From the IMG/VR virus record IMGVR_UViG_3300037249_000541, positions 42,382 through 106,381 of that record: DNA of 64,000 bases; one strand, written 5' to 3'. The stretch comes from a virus (lineage: Duplodnaviria; Caudoviricetes). The notes under the pieces are model-generated. The model was not told the DNA's origin and searched no databases. It was given only the letters and a program-made list of their open reading frames with translations. Shown piece after piece: positions 4,224-42,505 of the stretch (position 1 is its first letter; each line of letters begins with the position of its first letter). The translations under genes were made by a program, and so were the position numbers.

Positions 4224-6812
4224 TTATTTAGAATTATTATTACGTTTTTGCATCCTTTGGACGTTTATTTGTTTTTCTTTAAGCATTTTATCTTGACTTA
4301 ACTTTTTCTCGTTAAATCGAAGATTTTGTTCGTTATTTATTCTTGTGTCTTTTAATTTATCATCAGTTTGTTTTGCTTTTATATCAAATTGTCTTTTTTG
4401 TTCTTCGAGTTGAGCTATTCTTACAGCTAAATCACCGCCACCATCATCTGCACCTTCTATTTGCATAGCAGTAGTCTGAACTTTATTGTTGGCTTGAATA
4501 TTTGCAACTTCAATCTTTGTTTCATTATCCCTCTGGTTCATTAATTCTTGTAGCTGCAATTGTTGCTGTTGTAATTGCATTTGCATCTGAACAGCCTCTT
4601 GCTGTTGCTGTAATTGTTCTTGCTGTGATTGTTGTGCTTGCTGAATCTTCTCTTGTTCATCCTTTTCAACCATACGTTGTTTCTCTGCAAGAGATGCAGT
4701 ACCATATAGTTTCATTATAGTAGAAAATGATAATACTTGGTTTTGTAATGCAGCCTGAGCAAGCATTTCCATATTTTGTTTTAGTGTCTGAGAAGCGTCG
4801 GAATTATCAACAACAAGACCGTAATCACATTCAGCAAATTCATCTCCATCAATATCTATCAACTTATTGGCAAAATCATCTGATATATATTGGAATTTCT
4901 TTGATTTGCCCTTCATTGCAATCTTTGCTGTTTCAAGAAAAGCTTCAAGAACTCTCTTGATTGTATCTTCGTGCTTTAAAAACAACCATTCAGTAATATA
5001 AGAAGATTGTAACGTTGCTCTTTCTACGCCACCAACAGTTTCTCTGTTACTTACTTGACCTTCTCTTTGCCTTGAAATACCAACTATTTCAGACATTACA
5101 TTACGTACATATTCAAGTATTTCAGTATAAGCTCTTATAACTTCCATCTGAGAAGCCTGTATGCCACCAACAGAGTTGTTATTCAAAGCTCCTGCGAGTT
5201 TGCCAGTAGCAGAACCTATATTACCTTCATTAAATGAATCTTGAATTAATATACCAAGAGTTTTAGCATAATGCATATATTTTTCAAAAGACCATCCTCT
5301 TGGCATTTTAGCAAGGTCAACATTTACCAGAAAACCATAATCCCTTGCGATAAATCTTTCCATCTTCGCATGAATAACATCATACAAATATGCGTATGGC
5401 TTCATCATATCTACGAGAGAGAATGGTTTGTTTTCGTTAAGTGAGTAAATTGTACCAACTATACCAAAACTACATTTTGATGGATTAGATATGGAATTAT
5501 ATTGAACTGGGCAAGGTCTAATGTTAACATATATATCTTTACCTATCTTTGTACCTTCCCAAGCTTGGTTAATCCAATATATTTTCTCCGTTTCACCTTT
5601 TGCTTTATCAATGATATAGTCTTCATCATAGAACTTTTGTATCTCCTCGCCAGTTTGTGGGTCGTAAGAAGTAACCTTCTTTATCTTTCTTCTTGACTTC
5701 CAGTACATCCTTAATACCCTTATATTGCCTTCACCGTCAAATGGAGATAACTGTGATATTGCTGCATCACCGTAAGCTGCTGCTGGATTGAAATATATGT
5801 CATCTTCTGGGTTAACAATAACATCTGTAATCATTGGTCTTCTGACGAATCCTTGTCTTTCATCAATACTATTCATATTATCTGGACTTGCAGGTTCGCC
5901 AGTAGCACCCATTTGTTCAAGCTTTTTAACATCGCTTGGTGTTAAAGCATCGTAGAAAGTATCATATATAGCACCAAGTCCCCAATAGTCTTCTATGATT
6001 ATAACATCAGCATCTTCTATTTTATTTGAATAACCACAACCAAATGCTGATACCTTAAGGTTATTAAGTCTTTTTACTCTTGGTTCCCCACCAACTATCT
6101 CACATTGATACAATTCCTCACCAACTGTCATAGCATCCATAAGACCATCATTGAACATAACATTAAAGTTTTGCTCCTTTGAATAGTGATGAAGAAGCGT
6201 ATTACCTCTCATCTCTCTTATGTCCTGATATTGGTAAGTATAGTAATCTGTTATTCTTTTTAACTTTTCTTCAAAAGCTTGTTGAGCCTGTCCTTGTTGA
6301 TAAGCAGACTGCTGTGGTTGCTGACCTTGTTCTTGCGCTTGCTGTTGCTCCATCTGCTGTTGCTGCTGCTCCATTTGCGCTTGTTGATACAATTCAGCAT
6401 TCTGCTCTTTTATTAATTCTAAAACGGCATTATATACTTCATCCTTTTTCTTTGTTTCAATTTCAGATATAGATGTAGGGTTAGTAATAATAACCCTGTA
6501 ATCAAACACTCTTTTGCTTGCTTCACCTCTTAGTACATTTAATTTTGAATTAATTATAGGATAATGTTGTATCTTATTCGGAATGAAGCTTCCTTTGATT
6601 CCATCAGGATTTATAGTATTTGCTATATCTTTCATATGTATAATGCCATTCACCAAGTCGTAATTGATTTTCTTATGGATTGCAGTGTTCCTGATTAATC
6701 CATAATTCCAATATGACTTGGTGTCCGCCCAATCAAGATGCTTTTGTCGCCACTCCTTACCTTTACTTCTGAAAGATAATTGTTGTGGCGGGAATGAACT
6801 ATTTGCAAACAT
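4224..6812 (-). CDS. portal protein (crAss-type)
   Basis: FPPQQLSF, IQHYPIINSKLNVLRGE, WINQAWEGTKIG, GISRQREGQVSNRETVGGVERA motifs; start moved to ATG at 6812, downstream of the promoter. Confidence 0.92.
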   Translation of the reverse strand: MFANSSFPPQQLSFRSKGKEWRQKHLDWADTKSYWNYGLIRNTAIHKKINYDLVNGIIHMKDIANTINPDGIKGSFIPNKIQHYPIINSKLNVLRGEASKRVFDYRVIITNPTSISEIETKKKDEVYNAVLELIKEQNAELYQQAQMEQQQQQMEQQQAQEQGQQPQQSAYQQGQAQQAFEEKLKRITDYYTYQYQDIREMRGNTLLHHYSKEQNFNVMFNDGLMDAMTVGEELYQCEIVGGEPRVKRLNNLKVSAFGCGYSNKIEDADVIIIEDYWGLGAIYDTFYDALTPSDVKKLEQMGATGEPASPDNMNSIDERQGFVRRPMITDVIVNPEDDIYFNPAAAYGDAAISQLSPFDGEGNIRVLRMYWKSRRKIKKVTSYDPQTGEEIQKFYDEDYIIDKAKGETEKIYWINQAWEGTKIGKDIYVNIRPCPVQYNSISNPSKCSFGIVGTIYSLNENKPFSLVDMMKPYAYLYDVIHAKMERFIARDYGFLVNVDLAKMPRGWSFEKYMHYAKTLGILIQDSFNEGNIGSATGKLAGALNNNSVGGIQASQMEVIRAYTEILEYVRNVMSEIVGISRQREGQVSNRETVGGVERATLQSSYITEWLFLKHEDTIKRVLEAFLETAKIAMKGKSKKFQYISDDFANKLIDIDGDEFAECDYGLVVDNSDASQTLKQNMEMLAQAALQNQVLSFSTIMKLYGTASLAEKQRMVEKDEQEKIQQAQQSQQEQLQQQQEAVQMQMQLQQQQLQLQELMNQRDNETKIEVANIQANNKVQTTAMQIEGADDGGGDLAVRIAQLEEQKRQFDIKAKQTDDKLKDTRINNEQNLRFNEKKLSQDKMLKEKQINVQRMQKRNNNSK

Positions 6813-27278: not shown

Positions 27279-27799
27279 TTCTTTATTTTTATTTTAAATA
27301 CTTCAAAATCAACAATTGATTTAGTAGTCTTAAGAAATGTAGTACCTAACAAGCCTGATACAGTAACTCCACAGGTTTCCTTTATGTAGTCTATTGTATT
27401 GGCTAAATTAACCATAACAAATGGTACATTAAATACACAATCGCCATAGTTTAATTCAAGATATACATTTCCGTCTGTTGATGTTACAGTTGTAGACGAA
27501 CACATCTCATTATCATCTCCTTGGTAATAAGACACTTTATTTGCGTCAAACAAACTCATCATATCGGTATGTATAAAACATTCTGATGCACCAGTATCTA
27601 CAATAAGGTTAACTTTAACCATACCGTCTTTTCCTGGTATCTTGAATGTTATTACAGGAACCTCTACTAAATCAAGAGTTTCTTTAAAAGATATTTCCAG
27701 CTTCTTTTTCTTTCGCATAATCGACACGATATACCAAAGTATGACCAATATTATAATCTGTATTGACACACACAAGATTACAATCTGAGCATCACTCAT
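27275..27799 (-). CDS. membrane-anchored retropepsin-like aspartyl protease
   Basis: TM helix, LIVDTGA, GLLG..FL. Confidence 0.85.
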   Translation of the reverse strand: MSDAQIVILCVSIQIIILVILWYIVSIMRKKKKLEISFKETLDLVEVPVITFKIPGKDGMVKVNLIVDTGASECFIHTDMMSLFDANKVSYYQGDDNEMCSSTTVTSTDGNVYLELNYGDCVFNVPFVMVNLANTIDYIKETCGVTVSGLLGTTFLKTTKSIVDFEVFKIKIKK

Positions 27800-28859
27800 T
27801 TGGCTTTTTCAAAAGCTGTCCAAGATAGTTAATTCCGTCCTTGACAATATTTGGAGGAAGCGTAGCCTTTGAATGAATCAAGGCATTAAGCTCATTGCCA
27901 ATAACGAAAGGGTCTTCGAGAACTGTATTCCCACATTGAATATCGCCTTTTGTGAATGAATCCTCGAATTCAAACATTAAAGGTGTAAGAGAGTTTTTAT
28001 TTACAACGATAAACTTCATAGGTTTAACTTTGTAACCTGCCCACTCTCTTGAGTGTTGGACGATTTGGTTTAGTCCTTGACAGTATAATCTTGCCTGAAT
28101 ATCATAACGCCATTTAAGGAATGATTCTGGAAACTTATATTCTGGCTTGCTTGTCGTCTTCAAGTCAAAAGGCATAATTACCTTATGACTATGGTCGATA
28201 ATTAGCAAATCAAACATAAATTTATAATCAACTCCATTAACTGTTGTCATGAATTTTGCTTGATAAATTCTGTCAAGTTCATCGTCTGTTGCAAACACTA
28301 CTCCGATGAATTTGTCGTACTTCAACGCATTTACTGTTTTTATGACATCTTCAAGCGTGTCTTTTGATATGATTGTGTAATCATCTTCAGTTTTCGATTT
28401 TATATATTCTTTCACACCCTGGTCAATCATACCATCTGTGAAAAACATACGCAATTTCGACTCTACTGTTCTGTTAGAATAGAAATCAACATCAACAAAT
28501 GCAGCATAAAAATAATTTATTATTGAATCATCTTCAATAGCAGCACTTATCGTTTTGTTTCTTTCTACCAACATAGCAGATACACAATCAAGAACATCTT
28601 TTGATTTGCCAGTAAAGCTATTGTCGAGTACTTTGAACTTTTTGTTGAATTGCTCTTCACCCTCTGTAATAAGGGTGTCCACAGCAGACCCGAAGGTCAA
28701 ACTGTCGGTCTCCTCCCTATCTTCAAGATGTAAATAACCTTCAAATCCTTCTCGCAAATATTTACTTATTGCGGAATAGGATATGATTGGGAATCCATTC
28801 GCATCTTTAAGATTGCGATACTCTCTTTCAGAAAGGGATGTCATCCATATCGGAGTCAT
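27792..28859 (-). CDS. RecE/exonuclease VIII-like PD-(D/E)XK nuclease
   Basis: SYS.I, FGSAVD, FD...DLKTT, YDIQARLY. Confidence 0.85.
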   Translation of the reverse strand: MTPIWMTSLSEREYRNLKDANGFPIISYSAISKYLREGFEGYLHLEDREETDSLTFGSAVDTLITEGEEQFNKKFKVLDNSFTGKSKDVLDCVSAMLVERNKTISAAIEDDSIINYFYAAFVDVDFYSNRTVESKLRMFFTDGMIDQGVKEYIKSKTEDDYTIISKDTLEDVIKTVNALKYDKFIGVVFATDDELDRIYQAKFMTTVNGVDYKFMFDLLIIDHSHKVIMPFDLKTTSKPEYKFPESFLKWRYDIQARLYCQGLNQIVQHSREWAGYKVKPMKFIVVNKNSLTPLMFEFEDSFTKGDIQCGNTVLEDPFVIGNELNALIHSKATLPPNIVKDGINYLGQLLKKPNE

Positions 28860-29451
28860 CTTTTCGTGTTGTTTTCATTTGTTCTATTTTTGGTTGTTCT
28901 ACTTCTGCATTTAAACTTATGTTAAGTTTATTGAGAAGTGATACGGAAGCATCTGTTGTGCGTTTTACGGTTGTGATTTTCATATTCTCCAATTCTTCTT
29001 GAGAAATAAGTCTAATGTTTATTTTCAAGTTAATCTTACTCATAATAAAAAACATTATATATTTTCGGATAATAAAATATAACGTAGACTTATTGTCATA
29101 GAAGATAAGTGGGTCTATCAAAAATTCGCCATGTCTACTGTCGTACACAAATATGGGTACAAGCGAATTGTACCCATATATGTATATGCCTCGATTATAT
29201 ATTGCGAAACGCTCCCTTTTAATTCGTATTTCATATATGTCAGCTACCCAACGCGTTGAAGCGAATCCACTTAAAAACGCTTTAAGTGTTGAATAGGTAA
29301 CAACGGTTGAAATCAACATATTGTTGCCAAGAAAATACAAATTATATGGTTTCGTACTCGCATAATAAGTGAGCCTTAACGACGCGACTGATTGGGAATA
29401 TAAAAAAGTGTTCTCATTAAAACGCCTGATGGTGTTAAGAGGAATGTCCAT
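28828..29451 (-). CDS. hypothetical protein, distal gene of the Ubl operon
   Basis: Coupled to the E1 gene; acidic tail DDIPF. Confidence 0.55.
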   Translation of the reverse strand: MDIPLNTIRRFNENTFLYSQSVASLRLTYYASTKPYNLYFLGNNMLISTVVTYSTLKAFLSGFASTRWVADIYEIRIKRERFAIYNRGIYIYGYNSLVPIFVYDSRHGEFLIDPLIFYDNKSTLYFIIRKYIMFFIMSKINLKINIRLISQEELENMKITTVKRTTDASVSLLNKLNISLNAEVEQPKIEQMKTTRKDDSDMDDIPF

Positions 29452-29453
29452 TT

Positions 29454-30329
29454 TTATTTATATGCCCATGTTTTTAGCTGCTTGAACGATATACCAAGCG
29501 AATAGTCTGCTTCTGTGTAAAATTTTACATTCGTTGCAAACATTTCGTTGCTTTTGAAGTGAATATGTTGCGTCACGACGCCTGTGATACAAGCACCAAT
29601 TCCTGCTCCTATATGGCTTGTAGCCTTGTAAGAACATGGAAGATGTGCAGCTTCGTCATCGTTAAACAAACATTTCTCTCCATACATTTTCGCTTGACTT
29701 TTGTTTGATAATCTGAAAGTAAATACTTGAAATGCATCGGCTGTCATTCTGCCATCAATAAACAAACAACCTTCTGGGTCGTTTGCGTGTTGATTACAGT
29801 ATTCCTGCCAAACAAGCTTTCTTGCCTTCATACTATCAAGTGCAGTGATTGTTACTTTTGATAGAGTTTGGTTTGTGTAATACTCTGCAAAGAAACCACC
29901 TTTAACTGTTGGTACGTACTGACTGATAATATCACGTATTGCGTCAACTTTGTAGCTACCAATGTCGCTAAGTCTGTAAAGTTGACCAGCCATATTGTGT
30001 GTCTCAATCGTATCGCCATCAAACATAAAGATGTTTCCAGCACCAGCTCTTGCAAGTAGCAATGCAGTCCAAGAACCAATACCACCTGCCCCGACTATTG
30101 TAATAGGCATTTTTTCAAGTTCTTCTTTCCAAATTGCCTCACTAAATCGTTGCTGCGATGTATTGTCCTTGATATACGTTGATGGTACTGCAAGTTCTAC
30201 TGGCTCTGGTGCTGGTGCATCAGAAGGCTGTGCTGTTTCTGCTGTTTCAACAGGTTGTGGTTGTGTTGTTGCAGCAGGCGCAGCAGACCTTCCAAAAGTC
30301 ATTCTGATACTACCATTAATCCTTGCCAT
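29454..30329 (-). CDS. ThiF/E1-like activating enzyme
   Basis: GAGGIGS, D.D.I...N..GQ, K, D...AR, IDGRM, candidate catalytic Cys in LPCSYK. Confidence 0.9.
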   Translation of the reverse strand: MARINGSIRMTFGRSAAPAATTQPQPVETAETAQPSDAPAPEPVELAVPSTYIKDNTSQQRFSEAIWKEELEKMPITIVGAGGIGSWTALLLARAGAGNIFMFDGDTIETHNMAGQLYRLSDIGSYKVDAIRDIISQYVPTVKGGFFAEYYTNQTLSKVTITALDSMKARKLVWQEYCNQHANDPEGCLFIDGRMTADAFQVFTFRLSNKSQAKMYGEKCLFNDDEAAHLPCSYKATSHIGAGIGACITGVVTQHIHFKSNEMFATNVKFYTEADYSLGISFKQLKTWAYK

Positions 30330-32112
30330 TTGTTGTGTCTATTTCGTAGTTAATATAGTCAGTAATTGCTGACATAATGGCTTTTGTGTAAGGGCACTCA
30401 TACTCTCCTTTGACAATGTCTTTGAGATGTTTGAATGTCGCTACGAGCAACGTTTCGAGAAGGTCATCTCTGAACGCATAGAAACCACTCCTTAGTGCCT
30501 CTATGATTCCTTTGACTGCTTCTTCGACAGTTGATTCAAGCTTTATGCCGTCATTGTTGAGACCATAACGTTTGAGTTTTCCAACATTCTTCTTGATTGC
30601 GACTTTGATATCGTAAGGGAAGATTTTCTTCGGGTCTTTCAACTCCATTATTGACAGATTGACAAGCATCAAAGAAAGCTGGCGATATTCAATCATTCCA
30701 GTATCTTCGTCATTGTCATTTGCCGTAGTGTTGCTTGCCTCTGTTTTCTTCTCTGTATTGTTGAGGAATGTTCTCTTGTACTCCAACCAATTTTGGTAAA
30801 CAGTAGCTCCGTCAGGATTACTGTTCGGGTACTTGTTTGTCCACCATTGCCAATACTCGCCATAGTCCAAGGGTTTAGCAGCATCTACTATTCCATCGTC
30901 ATACTCATCGTTGCCATACTCATTGTTGTCGTCGTCATCAACGTATGCGTCTTCGCCAAGAATAGATAATACTGCTTTCCTAAACGATTCGCTTTCTTTA
31001 TTCTTTATTGCAAGCTCTGTTACTGAGCCATAGTCTCTGAACCACTGGTCGTCACTGTATTCGTCGTAGTAGTTTTGGTACGCGTACTCTTCCCTGGAGA
31101 TGTACTCTTGTCTTGACTGATAAGGAAGTAAACTTTGCTTCCAATAATCAAAGTCAATCTCAAAACCAGCCGTATCACAGTATTGAAGATACAGACCAAT
31201 CTTGTACCATTGGTCTTCTGTGAGAGCTGCTGTATTGAGTTTTCTTTCTCCGTTTTTGTCGTCTTGGTGGTAGTAGTGGAGCCAAGCTGAGTAGGCAAGA
31301 CTTCCACCGTTTCTTTGGTATTCCAAGAATTGCTCGTAGATGTTTTTCTTGTTCTTCCTACCTTTCTTGCCTTTCTTTGGCTGAAACTTTGTGAGTGTTC
31401 CATAGCCAGAGTAACCATAGTAGCTGGATTTCTTTCGTCTTTCCTCTTCTTCTTTCCTTTTACGCGCTTCTGCGAGGCTGTTGATACGGTCAACAAACTC
31501 AGCCTTCTGCGCTTCTGTCCATTCGGCTTCTGCATATTCAATGTTCTTTATGTCAAGAATTTCGAGAGCTTCAAAGTCCTTGAATGTTGTTTTTGTGTCT
31601 TGACCTTCGTTTTTCCATTTCGCAAACTCATTAGCGTACCTGTCGCCAGCAAGGACTTTTGTCTTTACTCGTTGTGTTATTCGCACTGAATAATCGCGGA
31701 CTTTTCTGTCGTTATATACGATTATTGAGAGGAAATTGGCTACATCAGGAGCTTTGCCTTCTTTCTCCATAGTATTATCATCTGTTCCTGATGGACCAAT
31801 AGTATACATACCATGGTGCGAATGGAGCAAGCCCATTTGGCAGCCAAGAAGCTTTCTGTGTCTGCTGATATATGTCAAAGCATACGTATCGTCATTGTTG
31901 AATGTTGTGAAGCCAGGTGTTCCTTCTTCATCCATAATAGCAAGGTCTTCAACTACTATGGACACTTTGGAATCTTCTCCTTCACCACCTTCTACCTTTT
32001 TGTGGTAGTAGTGGTTTCCACTCCATTCTTTGTCGGTACGCAGACTGCACATATATTCAATCTTCGCCATTACCAACGGCGAAAATTTCACTTTGATGTT
32101 TTCTGCTTTCAT
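30316..32112 (-). CDS. JAB/MPN+ metallopeptidase with long C-terminal extension
   Basis: EWSG...HSHH.M....SGTD JAMM motif. Confidence 0.85.
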   Translation of the reverse strand: MKAENIKVKFSPLVMAKIEYMCSLRTDKEWSGNHYYHKKVEGGEGEDSKVSIVVEDLAIMDEEGTPGFTTFNNDDTYALTYISRHRKLLGCQMGLLHSHHGMYTIGPSGTDDNTMEKEGKAPDVANFLSIIVYNDRKVRDYSVRITQRVKTKVLAGDRYANEFAKWKNEGQDTKTTFKDFEALEILDIKNIEYAEAEWTEAQKAEFVDRINSLAEARKRKEEEERRKKSSYYGYSGYGTLTKFQPKKGKKGRKNKKNIYEQFLEYQRNGGSLAYSAWLHYYHQDDKNGERKLNTAALTEDQWYKIGLYLQYCDTAGFEIDFDYWKQSLLPYQSRQEYISREEYAYQNYYDEYSDDQWFRDYGSVTELAIKNKESESFRKAVLSILGEDAYVDDDDNNEYGNDEYDDGIVDAAKPLDYGEYWQWWTNKYPNSNPDGATVYQNWLEYKRTFLNNTEKKTEASNTTANDNDEDTGMIEYRQLSLMLVNLSIMELKDPKKIFPYDIKVAIKKNVGKLKRYGLNNDGIKLESTVEEAVKGIIEALRSGFYAFRDDLLETLLVATFKHLKDIVKGEYECPYTKAIMSAITDYINYEIDTTNGKD

Positions 32113-33554
32113 TTTGTGTTGTTTATATTTACTATTTGCAATATGCCAAGTTTAATCATCGCATATACATTTGGGTGTAGTACAAGTATTGAATTATTAT
32201 CTTGATTGTCGCTGAGTTTTACCTTGTATTCTTTACCATTAAAATTAAGATGATTCTGGCACGCTTCAACGCGTGCAATAAAATCTGAGTCAAACGAACG
32301 TCCTGCTGACATTATCAATTTATTCATAGTAGAATCAAAGGTTACTCTTGTCGTACAAGATTTTGGGACAACTCCTAATCTTTTGGTACAAAGATGATAT
32401 AAATTTGTAAAATGCAAAACCAAGTCAGATTCAGTATTGGCAAAATTGATTATCTTGCCATTAGAATAGAACTTGACGAATCCATGAATTTGATTTTCAT
32501 CGAATATGTCTTTTATTGAAACTCCAATTGTTTTGAAACACAATGAATTCAATTTGTCATATTCTCTTTCGGTATTGCTGTATTTTGCATTTTCCAAATA
32601 GTCTTCTCCACCAGTAGAATTATTAATTTCAGTCATATACATATATGGGCCACCCAATGATGACTCAACTGATATGTAATTGTCTATATGAGAAAACCAC
32701 ATACGTATATATGAATCTGGAATTATATGCCATCCATCCAATCTACCTTGTTTGAATGAGTTTTCTACGTTGGTTACGTAGTCCACTATTGGTGAGTCTT
32801 CGCCAACACACTGCGCCTTGAACAAGAGAAATTTCTTTATCGCAGAGTCGCTATGACCTTCCAATCTTGGTCTATGACTGTGTACATAGTTAGATGTTAA
32901 CTGAGCCTTTGTATAAGTAGCTTTTGTCCCAAATAATCCTATTTGAAAATGTTGATGTGTCATGTTTGGTGATGCAATCATTCCATTAGTTGTGTTAAAC
33001 CGTAGGAAATAATCTTGTAGATGTACACTCAACTTTTCATTCTCATTAGATGTTACCGTTATTTCTGGATAATGAATATACACAAATTGTTCGTTGTAGT
33101 AGTAGTCGGTATCCAGAGGAAGGTCTATCTCTACTGATGGGATTATTGTTCCATACAAGTCACGGCATTTACGGTACATTAGGTCATTGAAATCTTTTGC
33201 CATAAGCAATATAATTGATGCATCTACTTTTTTGTCTCTTACATCATTTATGACATATTCAAAAACCTTAATAGGAGCTTCTATGGGCAGACTTGTACAT
33301 TCATACATTTCACGAAATTTTGCTTTACAAGCAAATCCGTAAGAACAAGTTGATACTAAATCTCGTCCAATTCCTTGGTTTCTGCCCGTTAAGAAATCAA
33401 TGAATAACTTCTTATACTCTTTATCTGTAACGTTAGTCGCTACATTTTCTTCCCCGTATTTACGCTTGGCAAGTTGCACGATTCGTCTGGTTTCGTATGT
33501 TGCACACATCCATACTAATCGAGCAATTCCTTCTTCTGATTTAAGATGATTCAT
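32109..33554 (-). CDS. prokaryotic E2-like protein
   Basis: Y.HSH...C(VG).SPI motif; position between Ubl and JAB genes. Confidence 0.55.
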   Translation of the reverse strand: MNHLKSEEGIARLVWMCATYETRRIVQLAKRKYGEENVATNVTDKEYKKLFIDFLTGRNQGIGRDLVSTCSYGFACKAKFREMYECTSLPIEAPIKVFEYVINDVRDKKVDASIILLMAKDFNDLMYRKCRDLYGTIIPSVEIDLPLDTDYYYNEQFVYIHYPEITVTSNENEKLSVHLQDYFLRFNTTNGMIASPNMTHQHFQIGLFGTKATYTKAQLTSNYVHSHRPRLEGHSDSAIKKFLLFKAQCVGEDSPIVDYVTNVENSFKQGRLDGWHIIPDSYIRMWFSHIDNYISVESSLGGPYMYMTEINNSTGGEDYLENAKYSNTEREYDKLNSLCFKTIGVSIKDIFDENQIHGFVKFYSNGKIINFANTESDLVLHFTNLYHLCTKRLGVVPKSCTTRVTFDSTMNKLIMSAGRSFDSDFIARVEACQNHLNFNGKEYKVKLSDNQDNNSILVLHPNVYAMIKLGILQIVNINNTK

Positions 33555-33624
33555 ATCTTTTTAATACGGAAAGGGTGAACTCACTTTCGTGAATCCACCC
33601 AAAAGATGAAACAGATAGATTTGA

Positions 33625-34365
33625 TTAGTTGTTCCTTGTTTGAGCAAAGATGCGCTTGCCAGGAACGTATTCTTCCTTGCTGCTGCCAGTCGTGTTAGCG
33701 TTGGTATTGTAGTTGGTACTCAACCTTGAAACTTGTTCAGAGAGCTTTCCAATCGCCGTAGCGAAATTCCTGTTTTGTTCGAGCATTGCTTCTGTTAGCT
33801 TGTTGAGCTGAGCTACGAGAGGGTCTCCTTCTTCTTTCTTCTTCTTCTCAACAAGTTTTTCTACTTGGGATTCGTTGATAAACTTCCTGAGCGTGTTGAG
33901 ACCAGCTGCTTCTGGCTGAATTCCATACTTTGCGACAAATTTGTCAACATCACCACGGTTGTTGATGATTGCGCAGCACTCTTCGATGTTGTTCATAGAC
34001 AGTGCGCACACCGCAATACCACTGTTGTAGAGCTTCCTTGATTCCGAGAGAGTCACATACAAGTATGGACCATCATCATCTTGAAGATGCTCATCAACGT
34101 AGTCTTGGTCTACGATGTTGTCGAAACGACTGTCATTAACATCGAGAATATCGCAGCTCTTTTCAAACAACGGTACAGTATTGGTTAATACACCGTGAGT
34201 GTCTGTTGTGAACTGGAACTTGTCAACATCTGAATTTCTTAATTCTGTGTTGCCGATGATGTCGCGTTTCAACTCTGCGATTGTTGAGGCTTGCGACATG
34301 ATTGCTACGTGTCCGTCTGGAATGGCAGGACAATTGATTACGATAGGTCGTGCTTTTGCGTACAT
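33625..34365 (-). CDS. ubiquitin-like (beta-grasp) precursor protein
   Basis: R.I.I...IMS.A.T.AELK.D...L.V.L...K...SG(116) followed by a helical extension. Confidence 0.55.
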   Translation of the reverse strand: MYAKARPIVINCPAIPDGHVAIMSQASTIAELKRDIIGNTELRNSDVDKFQFTTDTHGVLTNTVPLFEKSCDILDVNDSRFDNIVDQDYVDEHLQDDDGPYLYVTLSESRKLYNSGIAVCALSMNNIEECCAIINNRGDVDKFVAKYGIQPEAAGLNTLRKFINESQVEKLVEKKKKEEGDPLVAQLNKLTEAMLEQNRNFATAIGKLSEQVSRLSTNYNTNANTTGSSKEEYVPGKRIFAQTRNN

Positions 34366-34379
34366 TTTTTAATTGTTTT

Positions 34380-34589
34380 TTAAAGTTTTATTACTTCTCC
34401 AAGTTTGTGCTTGGAATTGTTAGAAAACGGGAAAACGTATGATACTGCCATGTAACCGAGGTCTTTTGCATAAGCTATAACCTTTTTGTTCATTTCGTTC
34501 ACACTGTCGCCCTTAGAAAAAAAGTTTTTAGGGAGTTTGATTTTCTTTGTCTCTTTATCCCTCTTCATTGTGAGTGTTATCCCTTCCAT
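34380..34589 (-). CDS. small hypothetical protein
   Basis: ORF overlapping the primase stop. Confidence 0.5.
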   Translation of the reverse strand: MEGITLTMKRDKETKKIKLPKNFFSKGDSVNEMNKKVIAYAKDLGYMAVSYVFPFSNNSKHKLGEVIKL

Positions 34590-35550
34590 TTTTAGCGTGT
34601 ATTAATTTGTTAAACATATTTATAAAGGGGGTTTGACCATTCAGCTTGTAATAGTCTGATACGTCCTTACCCCCTTCAAAGGGTGGGATAACAATGTTTT
34701 CGATATTGTATTTGTCAGACAAATGTGAAGAATATTCCAATCCTTTTTTATCATTATCATAGAGTATTCTAAATCTTGCATTAGGAAACATCTTTTTCAA
34801 ATATTCAAAAGGTATGTCATATCCTTCACCTTGTGGTGCAATACAATGTACTTGCAGATTTCCCCAAAGACATAATGCGTCTTTGACACTGCTACAAATT
34901 ATGATATCACCAACATCCCTATTCACAGCATATGTTAGAGACATAGTGTCTTTGGGGTAGTTGTTAAACCACTTATGGCCGTCGCTGTTTAATGGCTGAT
35001 AAATCTTATGGTAAATCTCACCATTCCGTTCTTCCACATAGGTATAAGCAAACTTATCTGCACGGAAAACATTTTCGTTTATCCAATAATAATCTATGGG
35101 GTAGATGTCAAATTGTTTTAAAAATTCTAAATCTACTCCATAGGTCTGCCAATACTCTTTGTCATATGTTTCAAACCCCCTAACTCGGACTTGAATCACG
35201 TTTGGATGCTTTTGTTCTTTTTTAACATAAGTTGTCTTATGTTGATATGTATGAGAAGTTGGTTTTACTTTAAAATCTTTCGCTATCATAGACAGCGCGT
35301 CTTTTATCGTAATTCCAAATTTCTTGCATATCATATCAAGAACATCACCATACTCACCAGTAGAGAAATCCTTATATGTAATCTTTCCTGTCTTTGATGT
35401 AAGACTGAAAGAAGGATGTCTATCTGGTCTTAATGGTGAATTTGTTACACCCATTCTCGTAATACCAAAATAATAGCTTAACAGTTCGTAATCGCTTACG
35501 TAACTATTAAGCGTATTAGTATCTAATAGTATTCGGGGTTTAGCGAACAT
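34555..35550 (-). CDS. dnaG: DnaG-like primase
   Basis: SPLR.D.HPSF, YKDF..GE.GD, TOPRIM SSVKD, GE, YDND..G, KDVSD. Confidence 0.9.
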   Translation of the reverse strand: MFAKPRILLDTNTLNSYVSDYELLSYYFGITRMGVTNSPLRPDRHPSFSLTSKTGKITYKDFSTGEYGDVLDMICKKFGITIKDALSMIAKDFKVKPTSHTYQHKTTYVKKEQKHPNVIQVRVRGFETYDKEYWQTYGVDLEFLKQFDIYPIDYYWINENVFRADKFAYTYVEERNGEIYHKIYQPLNSDGHKWFNNYPKDTMSLTYAVNRDVGDIIICSSVKDALCLWGNLQVHCIAPQGEGYDIPFEYLKKMFPNARFRILYDNDKKGLEYSSHLSDKYNIENIVIPPFEGGKDVSDYYKLNGQTPFINMFNKLIHAKNGRDNTHNEEG

Positions 35551-35553
35551 TTT

Positions 35554-36459
35554 TTAGAACGGAAGGTCGTTGTCTGGTTTCTTGATGTCGTTCTTCGTGG
35601 TTATCTTCGTTGGGCTAACCTCATACTTTACAAGGTTTGCCAAAACGTGTCCTTCGTAAAGGATGTCAGTACCTTGTATGGGGTTCTTTGCCCAATCGGC
35701 TTCGATTCCATTGAAGTTCTTGAAGTTCGACTTTTTGATTGCATAGATGGACTGATAATCGCCCTTATCGGTATGTCTGATACCGAATATAAGCAATACA
35801 TCATTAGAACCTTCCAATGCTTTCTTGATGGTCTTGACGTCGCCTTTGCAAAGAGCGATGAGTTCGGCAGGCTCGAAGTAGCAAAGGTATTCATCTTCGT
35901 TAGCCTTGATTTCCTCATCAGTAAGGTCGCGATACGAATTGTCCGCCAATCTTACAGATAAGTTTTTCAAGCCAAGATGAGCCTTCATTAACTCGATTAC
36001 CTCTTCTTCACCCTTAACGGCAGCACGGTATTCCTTGCTGATACGAGCTGGACCAGTAGAATACTGAGGAATTACTCCTGCTTTGTATTCGTCTGGTGTA
36101 GCCCACGCGAACCTACCATAGTGGTCGCATATCTGAATCTTACCAGTCCTGCTACCAACATAGGCACTGTTGGAAATCCACACCTTATACGCTACGTACT
36201 TCTTCTCTCCTTCAAAGTCGAAAGAGTACCAAAATTCGAGAGCATTCTGGGTGCCGTTGCTTTCCTTGCCGTTGACGTCTATTACCTTCGTTTCCGAAAC
36301 ATAGACTTTCTCCTTATCAAGATTTATTCCGATTTTTGCCAGCTCTTCCTTTGTCGGATTAACGAATTCAAGGTGAGCTATTGTTGAGCCAAGAAACTTC
36401 TCAATTGGTGCTGCTTCACGCACTTCTTGAGACTTGGCGAAAGCCATGAGATTTAACAT
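35554..36459 (-). CDS. ssb: single-stranded DNA-binding protein (crAss-type)
   Basis: VNPT.EEL, K.Q..D.YGR.AW, R.A..GEE, acidic tail DLPF. Confidence 0.75.
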   Translation of the reverse strand: MLNLMAFAKSQEVREAAPIEKFLGSTIAHLEFVNPTKEELAKIGINLDKEKVYVSETKVIDVNGKESNGTQNALEFWYSFDFEGEKKYVAYKVWISNSAYVGSRTGKIQICDHYGRFAWATPDEYKAGVIPQYSTGPARISKEYRAAVKGEEEVIELMKAHLGLKNLSVRLADNSYRDLTDEEIKANEDEYLCYFEPAELIALCKGDVKTIKKALEGSNDVLLIFGIRHTDKGDYQSIYAIKKSNFKNFNGIEADWAKNPIQGTDILYEGHVLANLVKYEVSPTKITTKNDIKKPDNDLPF

Positions 36460-42142: not shown

Positions 42143-42505
42143 TTAAACAACCGCGTTTTCTTTCTCTTTGTCAAAACATTTGTTCTGCAATATTTGACGG
42201 AAATATTCTTCTGCATCACCAAAAGATTCAAAATCTCTTTCGATGCAAGATTTATATTCTTTGCCTACCTTTAATAGTTTAAAGGTTTGGCTTAGTCCAT
42301 AAATAACACAGTTAGTTACCGTAAAATCAAATATTACTTTACCATTATCATCTTTTCGTGAAATAATAGAAATCTTTGCCATCATTAATGGTATGTAATG
42401 GCTATGTTCGTATTTCCTGAAATTCCACGAATTGATTCGTGTTAATGCAGAAATAAATGCTAACTTTAAAAATTGATAACTATTTGTCATTTCCCTTATA
42501 ATCAT
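42143..42505 (-). CDS. hypothetical protein
   Basis: ORF between RNA genes. Confidence 0.5.
   Translation of the reverse strand: MIIREMTNSYQFLKLAFISALTRINSWNFRKYEHSHYIPLMMAKISIISRKDDNGKVIFDFTVTNCVIYGLSQTFKLLKVGKEYKSCIERDFESFGDAEEYFRQILQNKCFDKEKENAVV

Follow-up and report, generated by a model that had tools for sequence, protein, structure and literature searches.

Does a phage of the cattle gut carry its own machinery for tagging other proteins with a ubiquitin-like protein (Ubl)? The question is raised by a run of genes on the minus strand of IMG/VR virus record IMGVR_UViG_3300037249_000541, a complete crAss-like phage genome of 106,381 bp with direct terminal repeats, recovered from cattle gut. 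The analysed DNA, referred to here as the window, makes up the right-hand 64 kb of that record (positions 42,382 to 106,381). Four adjacent genes of the window appear to encode a Ubl precursor, a protein resembling the transfer enzymes (E2) of ubiquitin pathways, a JAB/JAMM metallopeptidase, and an activating enzyme (E1) of the ThiF family. Judged from sequence comparisons and structure models, it is reasonably probable that the phage runs its own pathway of Ubl processing, activation, and transfer, and expresses it with its replication genes. A preliminary description of the window had called these genes, together with a fifth, a complete conjugation operon; we retain this name as the best reading of the locus, not as a demonstrated fact. 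In gut ecosystems, few viruses are as abundant as the crAss-like phages.

All five open reading frames (ORFs) of that description were present as contiguous genes on the minus strand. Their junctions are overlaps of 4–32 nt or gaps of 2–70 nt; the widest gap, of 70 nt, lies directly after the gene for the protein of 246 amino acids (aa), and the other junctions overlap or abut. Translation also verified the quoted motifs, namely KLYNSG116 followed by 130 aa, HSH...C, the JAB metal motif, and the E1 cysteine. These motifs exceed chance, since each stays invariant, or almost so, even among highly divergent relatives. The features of the four main genes are as follows.

33625-34365, minus strand: Ubl precursor gene, 246 aa; an ORF linked by hhalign to a positional family of crAss-like phages
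34018-34365, minus strand: ubiquitin-like (beta-grasp) domain, aa 1-116, with the end K111-L-Y-N-S115-G116
33841-34014, minus strand: HeH/Rho-N-terminal-like helical domain, aa 118-175, at the start of the extension that follows Gly116
32109-33554, minus strand: E2-like candidate, 481 aa; AlphaFold2 (AF2) model and conserved Cys/His core
32787-32888, minus strand: candidate active-site stretch of the E2-like protein, aa 223-256, Y223-x-H225-S226-H227...C249-x-G251-x-x-S-P255-I, delimited by conservation
30316-32112, minus strand: JAB/JAMM peptidase gene, 598 aa; conserved motif, with Prok-JAB matches in relatives
31663-32094, minus strand: JAB domain, approximately aa 7-150 of the 598-aa protein
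29454-30329, minus strand: E1-like adenylyltransferase (ThiF family), 291 aa; Pfam ThiF match
29634-29636, minus strand: codon of Cys232, the candidate catalytic cysteine of E1, aligned with MoeB Cys187

The search of IMG/VR with a ThiF alignment retrieved 411 relatives, and 80 loci were kept. In 71 of the 71 loci with enough upstream sequence, genes for the Ubl, the E2-like protein, JAB, and E1 follow the primase gene in that order. The four-gene set occurs in crAss001, DAC15/DAC17, Kolpuevirus, a number of cr-numbered phages, and phages of the Flavobacterium FpV4 group, whose annotations describe its members as hypothetical, ‘metalloprotease domain’, or ‘thiamine biosynthesis protein’. Metagenome runs from bovine and sheep gut, produced by many different studies, contain close relatives of the phage itself. 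Near-identical DNA was absent among GenBank phages, and close relatives were not found in single-protein scans of IMG/VR or in two scans of JGI metagenome contigs. One further locus (L093, positions 282303-296881 of a 373,651-base contig) belongs to a metagenome-assembled genome (MAG) of Puia sp. and comprises a phage-type primase, the Ubl, the E2-like protein, JAB, E1, and an exonuclease. In this Chitinophagaceae MAG, the module would represent an integrated crAss-like element or else be the product of chimeric assembly.

A word search with the 246-aa protein returned close relatives only, and profile alignment (hhalign E 1.4e-5) showed homology to the gene in the same position of crAss-like phages. 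When 54 sequences with approximately 20% identity were aligned, only seven columns were invariant, three of which (K111, S115, and G116) close the N-terminal domain, and the pattern K-x3-S-G is present in 80 of 81 Ubl-domain ORFs from related loci. The AF2 model of the protein is poor (pLDDT 52.6). In a structure search that used this model and was independent of Foldseek, about 35 of the 50 best rows were ubiquitin-like domains, among them the Dsk2 UBL, FAT10, Atg12, Hub1, ISG15, and ubiquitin, whose residues 1-75 were placed on residues 6-114 of the model. The Ubl call of the preliminary description is thus supported by these rows and by the invariant glycine. Comparison of the Ubl domain with Escherichia coli ThiS alone gave no hhalign signal, and Pfam, PHROGs, NCBIfam, and PADLOC contained nothing that matched the Ubl precursor, the E2-like protein, or the fifth protein of the window.

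The precursor consists of the ubiquitin-like domain, the HeH domain, and a helical C-terminal part, with 130 aa beyond Gly116. This post-glycine part is variable among relatives. HeH and helices are found in most of them and acidic tails in others, while in some a ribosomal L7/L12 C-terminal domain (Pfam 2.9e-14) is inserted into the extension's linker (L006:3319-4215 and L023:2022-2987). Stand-alone forms of 82–96 aa, represented by at least nine independent sequences, end 1, 2, or 5 residues past the glycine. In phage cr106_1, an ORF of the HNH/NUMOD4 homing-endonuclease type (L033:5029-5544) splits the Ubl gene two codons past Ser-Gly into parts at 4749-5027 and 5560-5952. The HeH/tail part begins at a start codon of its own, and Rfam detected no group I intron at this split gene. 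Because the post-glycine part varies freely, down to 1–5 residues, the Gly-ending domain is the element that stays constant, which is what one would expect if a modifier is made with a removable tail. We regard this comparison as the strongest argument for reading the protein as a Ubl. The earlier proposal that Gly116 marks the end of the working Ubl agrees with both the invariance of this residue and the stand-alone forms.

The JAB protein of the window possesses the catalytic residues E29 and H97-S-H99-x8-S108-G-T-D111. Each of E29, H97-S-H99, S108, and D111 is kept in at least 79 of 86 homologues. Prok-JAB was matched by 31 of 36 family members at E <= 0.01 (best value, 1.1e-6), and the family profile aligned the catalytic motif with those of CSN5 and Pyrococcus JAMM1, in line with the former assignment of a JAB peptidase with an intact metal motif. 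The remaining ~450 aa after the JAB domain are low-complexity and helical. The protein exceeds its relatives by 150–240 aa (region 30316-31660), the extra length being made up of Lys/Glu-rich and Asp/Tyr-rich low-complexity stretches in the C-terminal part.

The E1-like enzyme is the most readily classified member of the set. It scores 83.4 bits (E 1.8e-23) on Pfam ThiF (PF00899), where the cut-off is 28.1, and a profile of 84 phage homologues matched E. coli MoeB/ThiF in hhalign with 97.7% probability (E 2e-12), so the original ThiF/E1 assignment holds. The protein has one ThiF domain (residues 69-271 of 291) and a Pro/Ala-rich N-terminal extension. Its nucleotide loop is G80-A-G-G-I-G-S86, D165-S-M-K-A-R170 is aligned to MoeB D130-N-x-x-x-R, and C232, in the context L-P-C232-S-Y-K, is aligned to MoeB C187, the equivalent of ThiF C184. 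D165, R170, and C232 are each kept in 84 of 84 sequences. In ThiF, C184 is the crossover-loop cysteine and carries the acyl group; MoeB C187 and UBA5 C250 are its equivalents. We infer that Cys232 is the catalytic residue of the phage E1. The two CxxC zinc motifs are absent from the phage E1 alignment. The top PDB sequence matches were PaaA (4.6e-13), MccB (3e-7; family profile, 3e-12), and UBA5, and the E1 subfamily is not readable from sequence because these matches span only the ATP-binding half, residues 65-150. Similarly, the PADLOC E1-E2 models of the CBASS Cap2 type match the phage E1 (4e-15) over the Rossmann part only. Membership in the PRTRC system was rejected, as PRTRC_ThiF scored 32.8 bits against a cut-off of 144.75 and the other four proteins had no PRTRC match. 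Plasmid matches of E1 pointed to ThiF settings unrelated to the module, one being a YcaO/TfuA cluster in Legionella, and were set aside.

The 481-aa protein belongs to a family of 3262 clusters at 50% identity (E <= 0.001), in which N170, S226, H227, C249, G251, P255, E297, S298, G301, P303, and F359 are invariant across 154 diverse members, and Y223 and H225 are conserved in 153 of these. The AF2 model (pLDDT 69.6, pTM 0.64) comprises an N-terminal helix, an inserted helical domain (approximately aa 45-133), a beta-meander, loops that bear H-S-H and the cysteine, and helices; a C-terminal domain follows the Cys/His core. The structure search with this model returned rows of the UBC/UEV/RWD fold, with UBC-fold proteins strongly enriched among the best rows, and canonical E2s align with the model over 124–131 of their ~150 residues. 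The invariant Cys and His residues are located directly past the modelled beta-meander. Based on this resemblance of the model to the E2/UBC fold, the 481-aa protein is a probable transfer enzyme.

Other searches with this family gave no E2 match. Foldseek found nothing at E <= 0.001 for the model, a search of the ESM Atlas with the core gave no usable match, and UQ_con, Prok-E2_A to E, and RWD were matched neither by the window protein nor by any of 48 family members. The protein had no NCBIfam or PADLOC match. The family profile searched against PDB retrieved only chance or coiled-coil matches and no E2, and in a genome search bridging the family to known Prok-E2 families Prok-E2_B was matched nowhere.

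A cellular counterpart of the phage genes was found by searching prokaryote genomes, one for each species, with the ThiF alignment; this search also retrieved phage contigs binned into MAGs. In 22 bacterial or mobile-element loci (L109:4858-7657, L101:4850-7585, L104:4802-7648, and 19 further genome loci), genes for a ThiS-family Ubl, a protein with an HPH..C motif, JAB, and E1 occur together. The loci belong to Methylomirabilota, Ignavibacteriota, Bacteroidota, Myxococcota, Chloroflexota, and others, and no published operon class was matched by this four-gene operon. The Ubl is 66–85 aa long, matches the Pfam ThiS family (30.9 bits), and ends with P-K-[VI]-x-G-G plus 0–5 residues. The second protein, of ~390 aa, has a nearly invariant H-P-H...C-x-G...W; its string Y-D-H-P-H-I-x-x-G-x-P-C-L-G-N is E2-like and lies past predicted strands. 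Searches with this HPH..C family against PDB sequence profiles gave only chance or coiled-coil matches. E1 is 205–260 aa long, and JAB is small. Two gene orders occur, with the Ubl gene either first, as in the phage, or after the E1 gene. One locus has a nearby DUF932 gene, typical of mobile elements, whereas the phage set lies in a replication module. Another locus adds a C39 peptidase.

The phage and cellular sets share the gene order in several loci (such as L101, L104, and L109), and their E1 proteins are 30–36% identical. Their JAB proteins form one family, as the profile of the cellular set retrieves phage-type JABs in the same genome-contig loci at ~1e-50. The Ubl ends are alike, K-[VI]-x-G-G plus 0–5 aa in the cellular proteins and K-[IV]-x-S-G in the phage, and hhalign aligned the phage Ubl domain end to end with the cellular ThiS-like proteins, placing SG on GG. 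However, the cellular Ubl is a small free protein recognised by Pfam as ThiS family, while the phage Ubl is made as a precursor without a Pfam match. Only the motif Y-x-H-[PS]-H...C-x-G is common to the second proteins of both sets.

The E2-like protein is the member on which an unlikely alternative, though the least unlikely of those considered, turns. Here, E1 alone would tag proteins, as in archaeal SAMP/UbaA or Urm1, and the 481-aa protein would be a scaffold, a target-binding factor, a His/Cys-dyad peptidase, or a substrate. Set against this are the enrichment of UBC-fold proteins in the best structure rows and the alignment of nearly whole E2 chains described above, as well as the absence of papain-like or NlpC/P60 proteins from the 50 best rows of the 481-aa protein. 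The invariant cysteine also occupies the E2 position, past the beta-meander and before a helix, and the cellular counterpart carries the E2-like H-P-H-I-x-x-G-x-P-C-L-G with the canonical E2 His-Cys spacing.

Another alternative, which we consider quite unlikely, is a sulfur-carrier pathway. In this case, a Ubl trimmed by JAB, as CysO is by Mec+, and adenylated by E1 would become a thiocarboxylate and pass sulfur on to a cofactor, nucleotide, DNA, or tRNA-like RNAs, and no protein would be tagged. In favour of it, the Ubl of the cellular counterpart belongs to the Pfam ThiS family. Operons that combine JAB, E1, and ThiS/MoaD for sulfur transfer are known (PMC1779556), the top NCBIfam matches of the phage E1 are ThiF models, and Cys232 occupies the position of ThiF Cys184. 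On the other side, the E1 has no rhodanese domain, the Ubl ends with Ser-Gly and not with the usual Gly-Gly, and the strictly linked fourth protein, with its invariant Cys/His core and UBC-like model, would have no role in known sulfur relays. The preliminary description had seen no sulfur-carrier genes in the window, and in the complete genome there was likewise no Pfam match to Rhodanese, ATP_bind_3 (PP-loop ATPase), or Aminotran_5 (cysteine desulfurase), the sulfur donor or acceptor partners that were looked for (ThiG and MoaE were not searched), although host enzymes could serve instead. This first-look search can miss divergent members, because it also missed the genome's own weak JAB.

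It is improbable that the genes serve processing only. In that case the Ubl would act at the N-terminus as a chaperone or timer that is removed, the functional product would be the C-terminal HeH/helical fragment, a replication factor that binds DNA or protein, and E1 would be an enzyme for another substrate. The extension has a folded HeH domain and, in relatives, a conserved C-terminal Y-S-x-x-E-I-D-x-M-F, and pairs of Ubl and JAB without E1 are known from the tail modules of lambda/T1 (PMC1779556). The idea fits poorly because lineages in which the extension is replaced or reduced to 1–5 residues keep the Ubl, JAB, E1, and E2-like genes; the Ubl domain and its terminal glycine are constant, and E1 is always linked. 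It is very improbable that, as the PaaA and MccB matches of E1 would suggest, the enzyme acts by adenylating a peptide or protein at its C-terminus and so yields a modified peptide (such as a peptidyl-nucleotide or a cyclised product) without tagging, since these matches are restricted to the common ATP-binding half, the candidate substrate is a folded ubiquitin-like domain and not a short peptide, and neither JAB nor an E2-like partner accompanies MccB or PaaA.

In the preferred reading, a conjugation pathway run by the phage, JAB would cut the precursor right after Gly116 to release the free Ubl and the C-terminal HeH/helical fragment. A direct precedent for such a cut is offered, by analogy, by BubCD, whose JAB domain cleaves the pre-protein BubAB immediately behind a conserved glycine (PMC11601596). 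E1 would then adenylate Gly116 and hold the Ubl on Cys232 as a thioester, from where it would move to Cys249 of the E2-like protein. Since no E3 was seen, the extra helical and C-terminal domains of the latter may pick targets directly. The final acceptors of the Ubl would be proteins of the phage or the host, plausibly those at the replication machinery, and JAB could also remove the attached Ubl.

Several results weigh against this pathway. The window JAB scores 15.6 bits on Prok-JAB, which is below the Pfam cut-off of 25, and PaaA and MccB, the top PDB matches of E1, modify peptides and not Ubls. In the E2-like protein, the spacing from His to Cys is 22–24 residues, compared with ~10 in canonical E2s. 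The hhalign links to the cellular counterpart are weak for both the Ubl (E 2e-4 to 1.5e-3, 17–22% probability) and the E2-like protein (E 8e-4 to 8e-3, 5–24% probability). Finally, no E3 and no target were identified. The links between the phage and cellular proteins, weak as each of them is, nevertheless agree with the common gene order.

A broader reading that joins these elements is possible but doubtful. According to it, crAss-like phages run a true protein-tagging pathway with a new, large E2-like family (>3000 clusters at 50% identity) that has its own target-recognition domains. The Ubl would be placed onto replication-fork or host proteins and thereby control genome replication or disarm host defence, and the set would have been derived from an unnamed bacterial mobile-element operon of ThiS-like Ubl, HPH-Cys protein, JAB, and E1.

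The block lies within the replication module, as had been noted earlier, because a primase and an exonuclease flank the five genes. The fifth gene and the surrounding features are the following.

27792-28859, minus strand: PD-(D/E)XK exonuclease (PHROG 1e-19)
28828-29451, minus strand: fifth gene, 207 aa, with an SSB-like acidic tail (..DMDDIPF) and without a family match
34380-34589: 69-aa ORF in the row with the primase and Ubl genes (weak PHROG match, 0.003)
34555-35550, minus strand: primase (PHROG 8e-34)
35554-36459, minus strand: gene similar to that of single-stranded DNA-binding protein (SSB), 301 aa, in the packed gene row

The 69-aa ORF has a 35-nt overlap with the primase stop and is positioned just upstream of the Ubl gene.

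The inclusion of the fifth gene in the operon was not upheld. Its protein is unrelated to the product of the gene that follows ThiF in relatives (hhalign, 0.1% probability), and we would not include it in the set; the positional family of the conserved gene after ThiF in relatives had no Pfam match. Relatives of the fifth gene were not found in JGI metagenome contigs, and none were detectable beyond the closest strains. Strain variants were counted in contigs from other cattle and sheep samples. The fifth gene has 2 synonymous and 5 non-synonymous variants, while those of its neighbours are mostly synonymous: 16 versus 3 in the ThiF (E1) gene, 7 versus 3 in the E2-like gene, and 3 versus 1 in the JAB gene. 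The fifth gene is not conserved, evolves rapidly, and probably does not belong to the core module. The 207-aa protein and the 301-aa SSB-like protein both possess acidic tips of the SSB type, ..DSDMDDIPF (28831-28869) and ..PDNDLPF (35557-35592), respectively, on the minus strand, and the SSB-like homologue in locus L031 ends with ..EDDIPF. The shared tips suggest a common docking site on a replication partner.

Prokaryotic pathways that combine Ubl, E1, E2, and JAB have so far been shown to act in host anti-phage defence (Bil and CBASS) or have had no known role (Bub). Here, the same logic is found inside a phage, fixed beside the primase in every checkable related locus. If tagging is true, this would be a virus-run protein-modification system in bacteria. 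It would then add a new family of E2-like proteins, would probably be tied to DNA replication or counter-defence, and would put right the annotation of the E1 as a thiamine enzyme, an error that is widespread. The relatives include the cultured model phages crAss001, DAC15, and FpV4. Literature searches retrieved the general prokaryotic background (PMC1779556 and the papers on Bil, Bub, and CBASS) and no description of the module in crAss-like or Flavobacterium phages.

Among the known systems, Bil (BilA, Ubl; BilB, E2; BilC, JAB; BilD, E1), as summarised in PMC11601596 and PMC10557695, likewise distributes the four functions over four separate genes. Cysteine-based chemistry is expected in both, and the Bil E2 is thought to choose its targets without an E3, which the phage set lacks as well. 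The Bil E1, however, has an inactive and an active adenylation domain and a separate Cys domain, in contrast to the single ThiF domain of the phage E1, and Pfam, NCBIfam, and PADLOC revealed no detectable sequence relation of the phage Ubl, E2-like protein, or JAB to Bil. Bil is a host weapon against phages, whereas the present set is carried by a phage. In type I Bub (BubAB, BubCD, and BubE; formerly 6E.1; PMC11601596), the Ubl is fused to E2 and JAB to E1. The phage has four separate genes, and its Ubl is fused to the HeH/helical part. Bub forms Ser/Tyr oxyesters and has no catalytic cysteines, while Cys232 and Cys249 are invariant in the phage proteins. Bub is located in bacterial defence contexts and not in the replication module of a lytic phage, and a scan of 11 genes within and next to the module (27792-36459) gave no match to the DUF6527/BubE protease.

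CBASS has the trio of E1, E2, and JAB in common with the phage set, in the form of Cap2 (an E2-E1 fusion) and Cap3 (JAB), but Cap2 conjugates the cGAS-like enzyme itself and uses no separate Ubl. The tail assembly proteins I (Ubl) and K (JAB with NlpC/P60) of lambda/T1 (PMC1779556) resemble the present proteins in being a phage Ubl with a terminal Gly, a C-terminal fusion, and a JAB partner; this pair, however, belongs to a tail module without E1 or E2. The sulfur-carrier pairs ThiS-ThiF, MoaD-MoeB, and CysO-Mec+ offer, as in the phage, a ThiF-family E1 with a crossover-loop Cys and a beta-grasp carrier with a terminal Gly, and the trimming in CysO/Mec+ parallels the phage JAB and Ubl precursor. 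In contrast to these carriers, the phage E1 has no Zn-binding CxxC pairs and the set includes an additional E2-like partner. Taken together, these comparisons indicate that the phage set is not a member of Bil, Bub, CBASS, or PRTRC, yet resembles them in the way it would work. Its E2-like family, the architecture of its Ubl, and its setting in the replication module of a lytic phage appear to be new.

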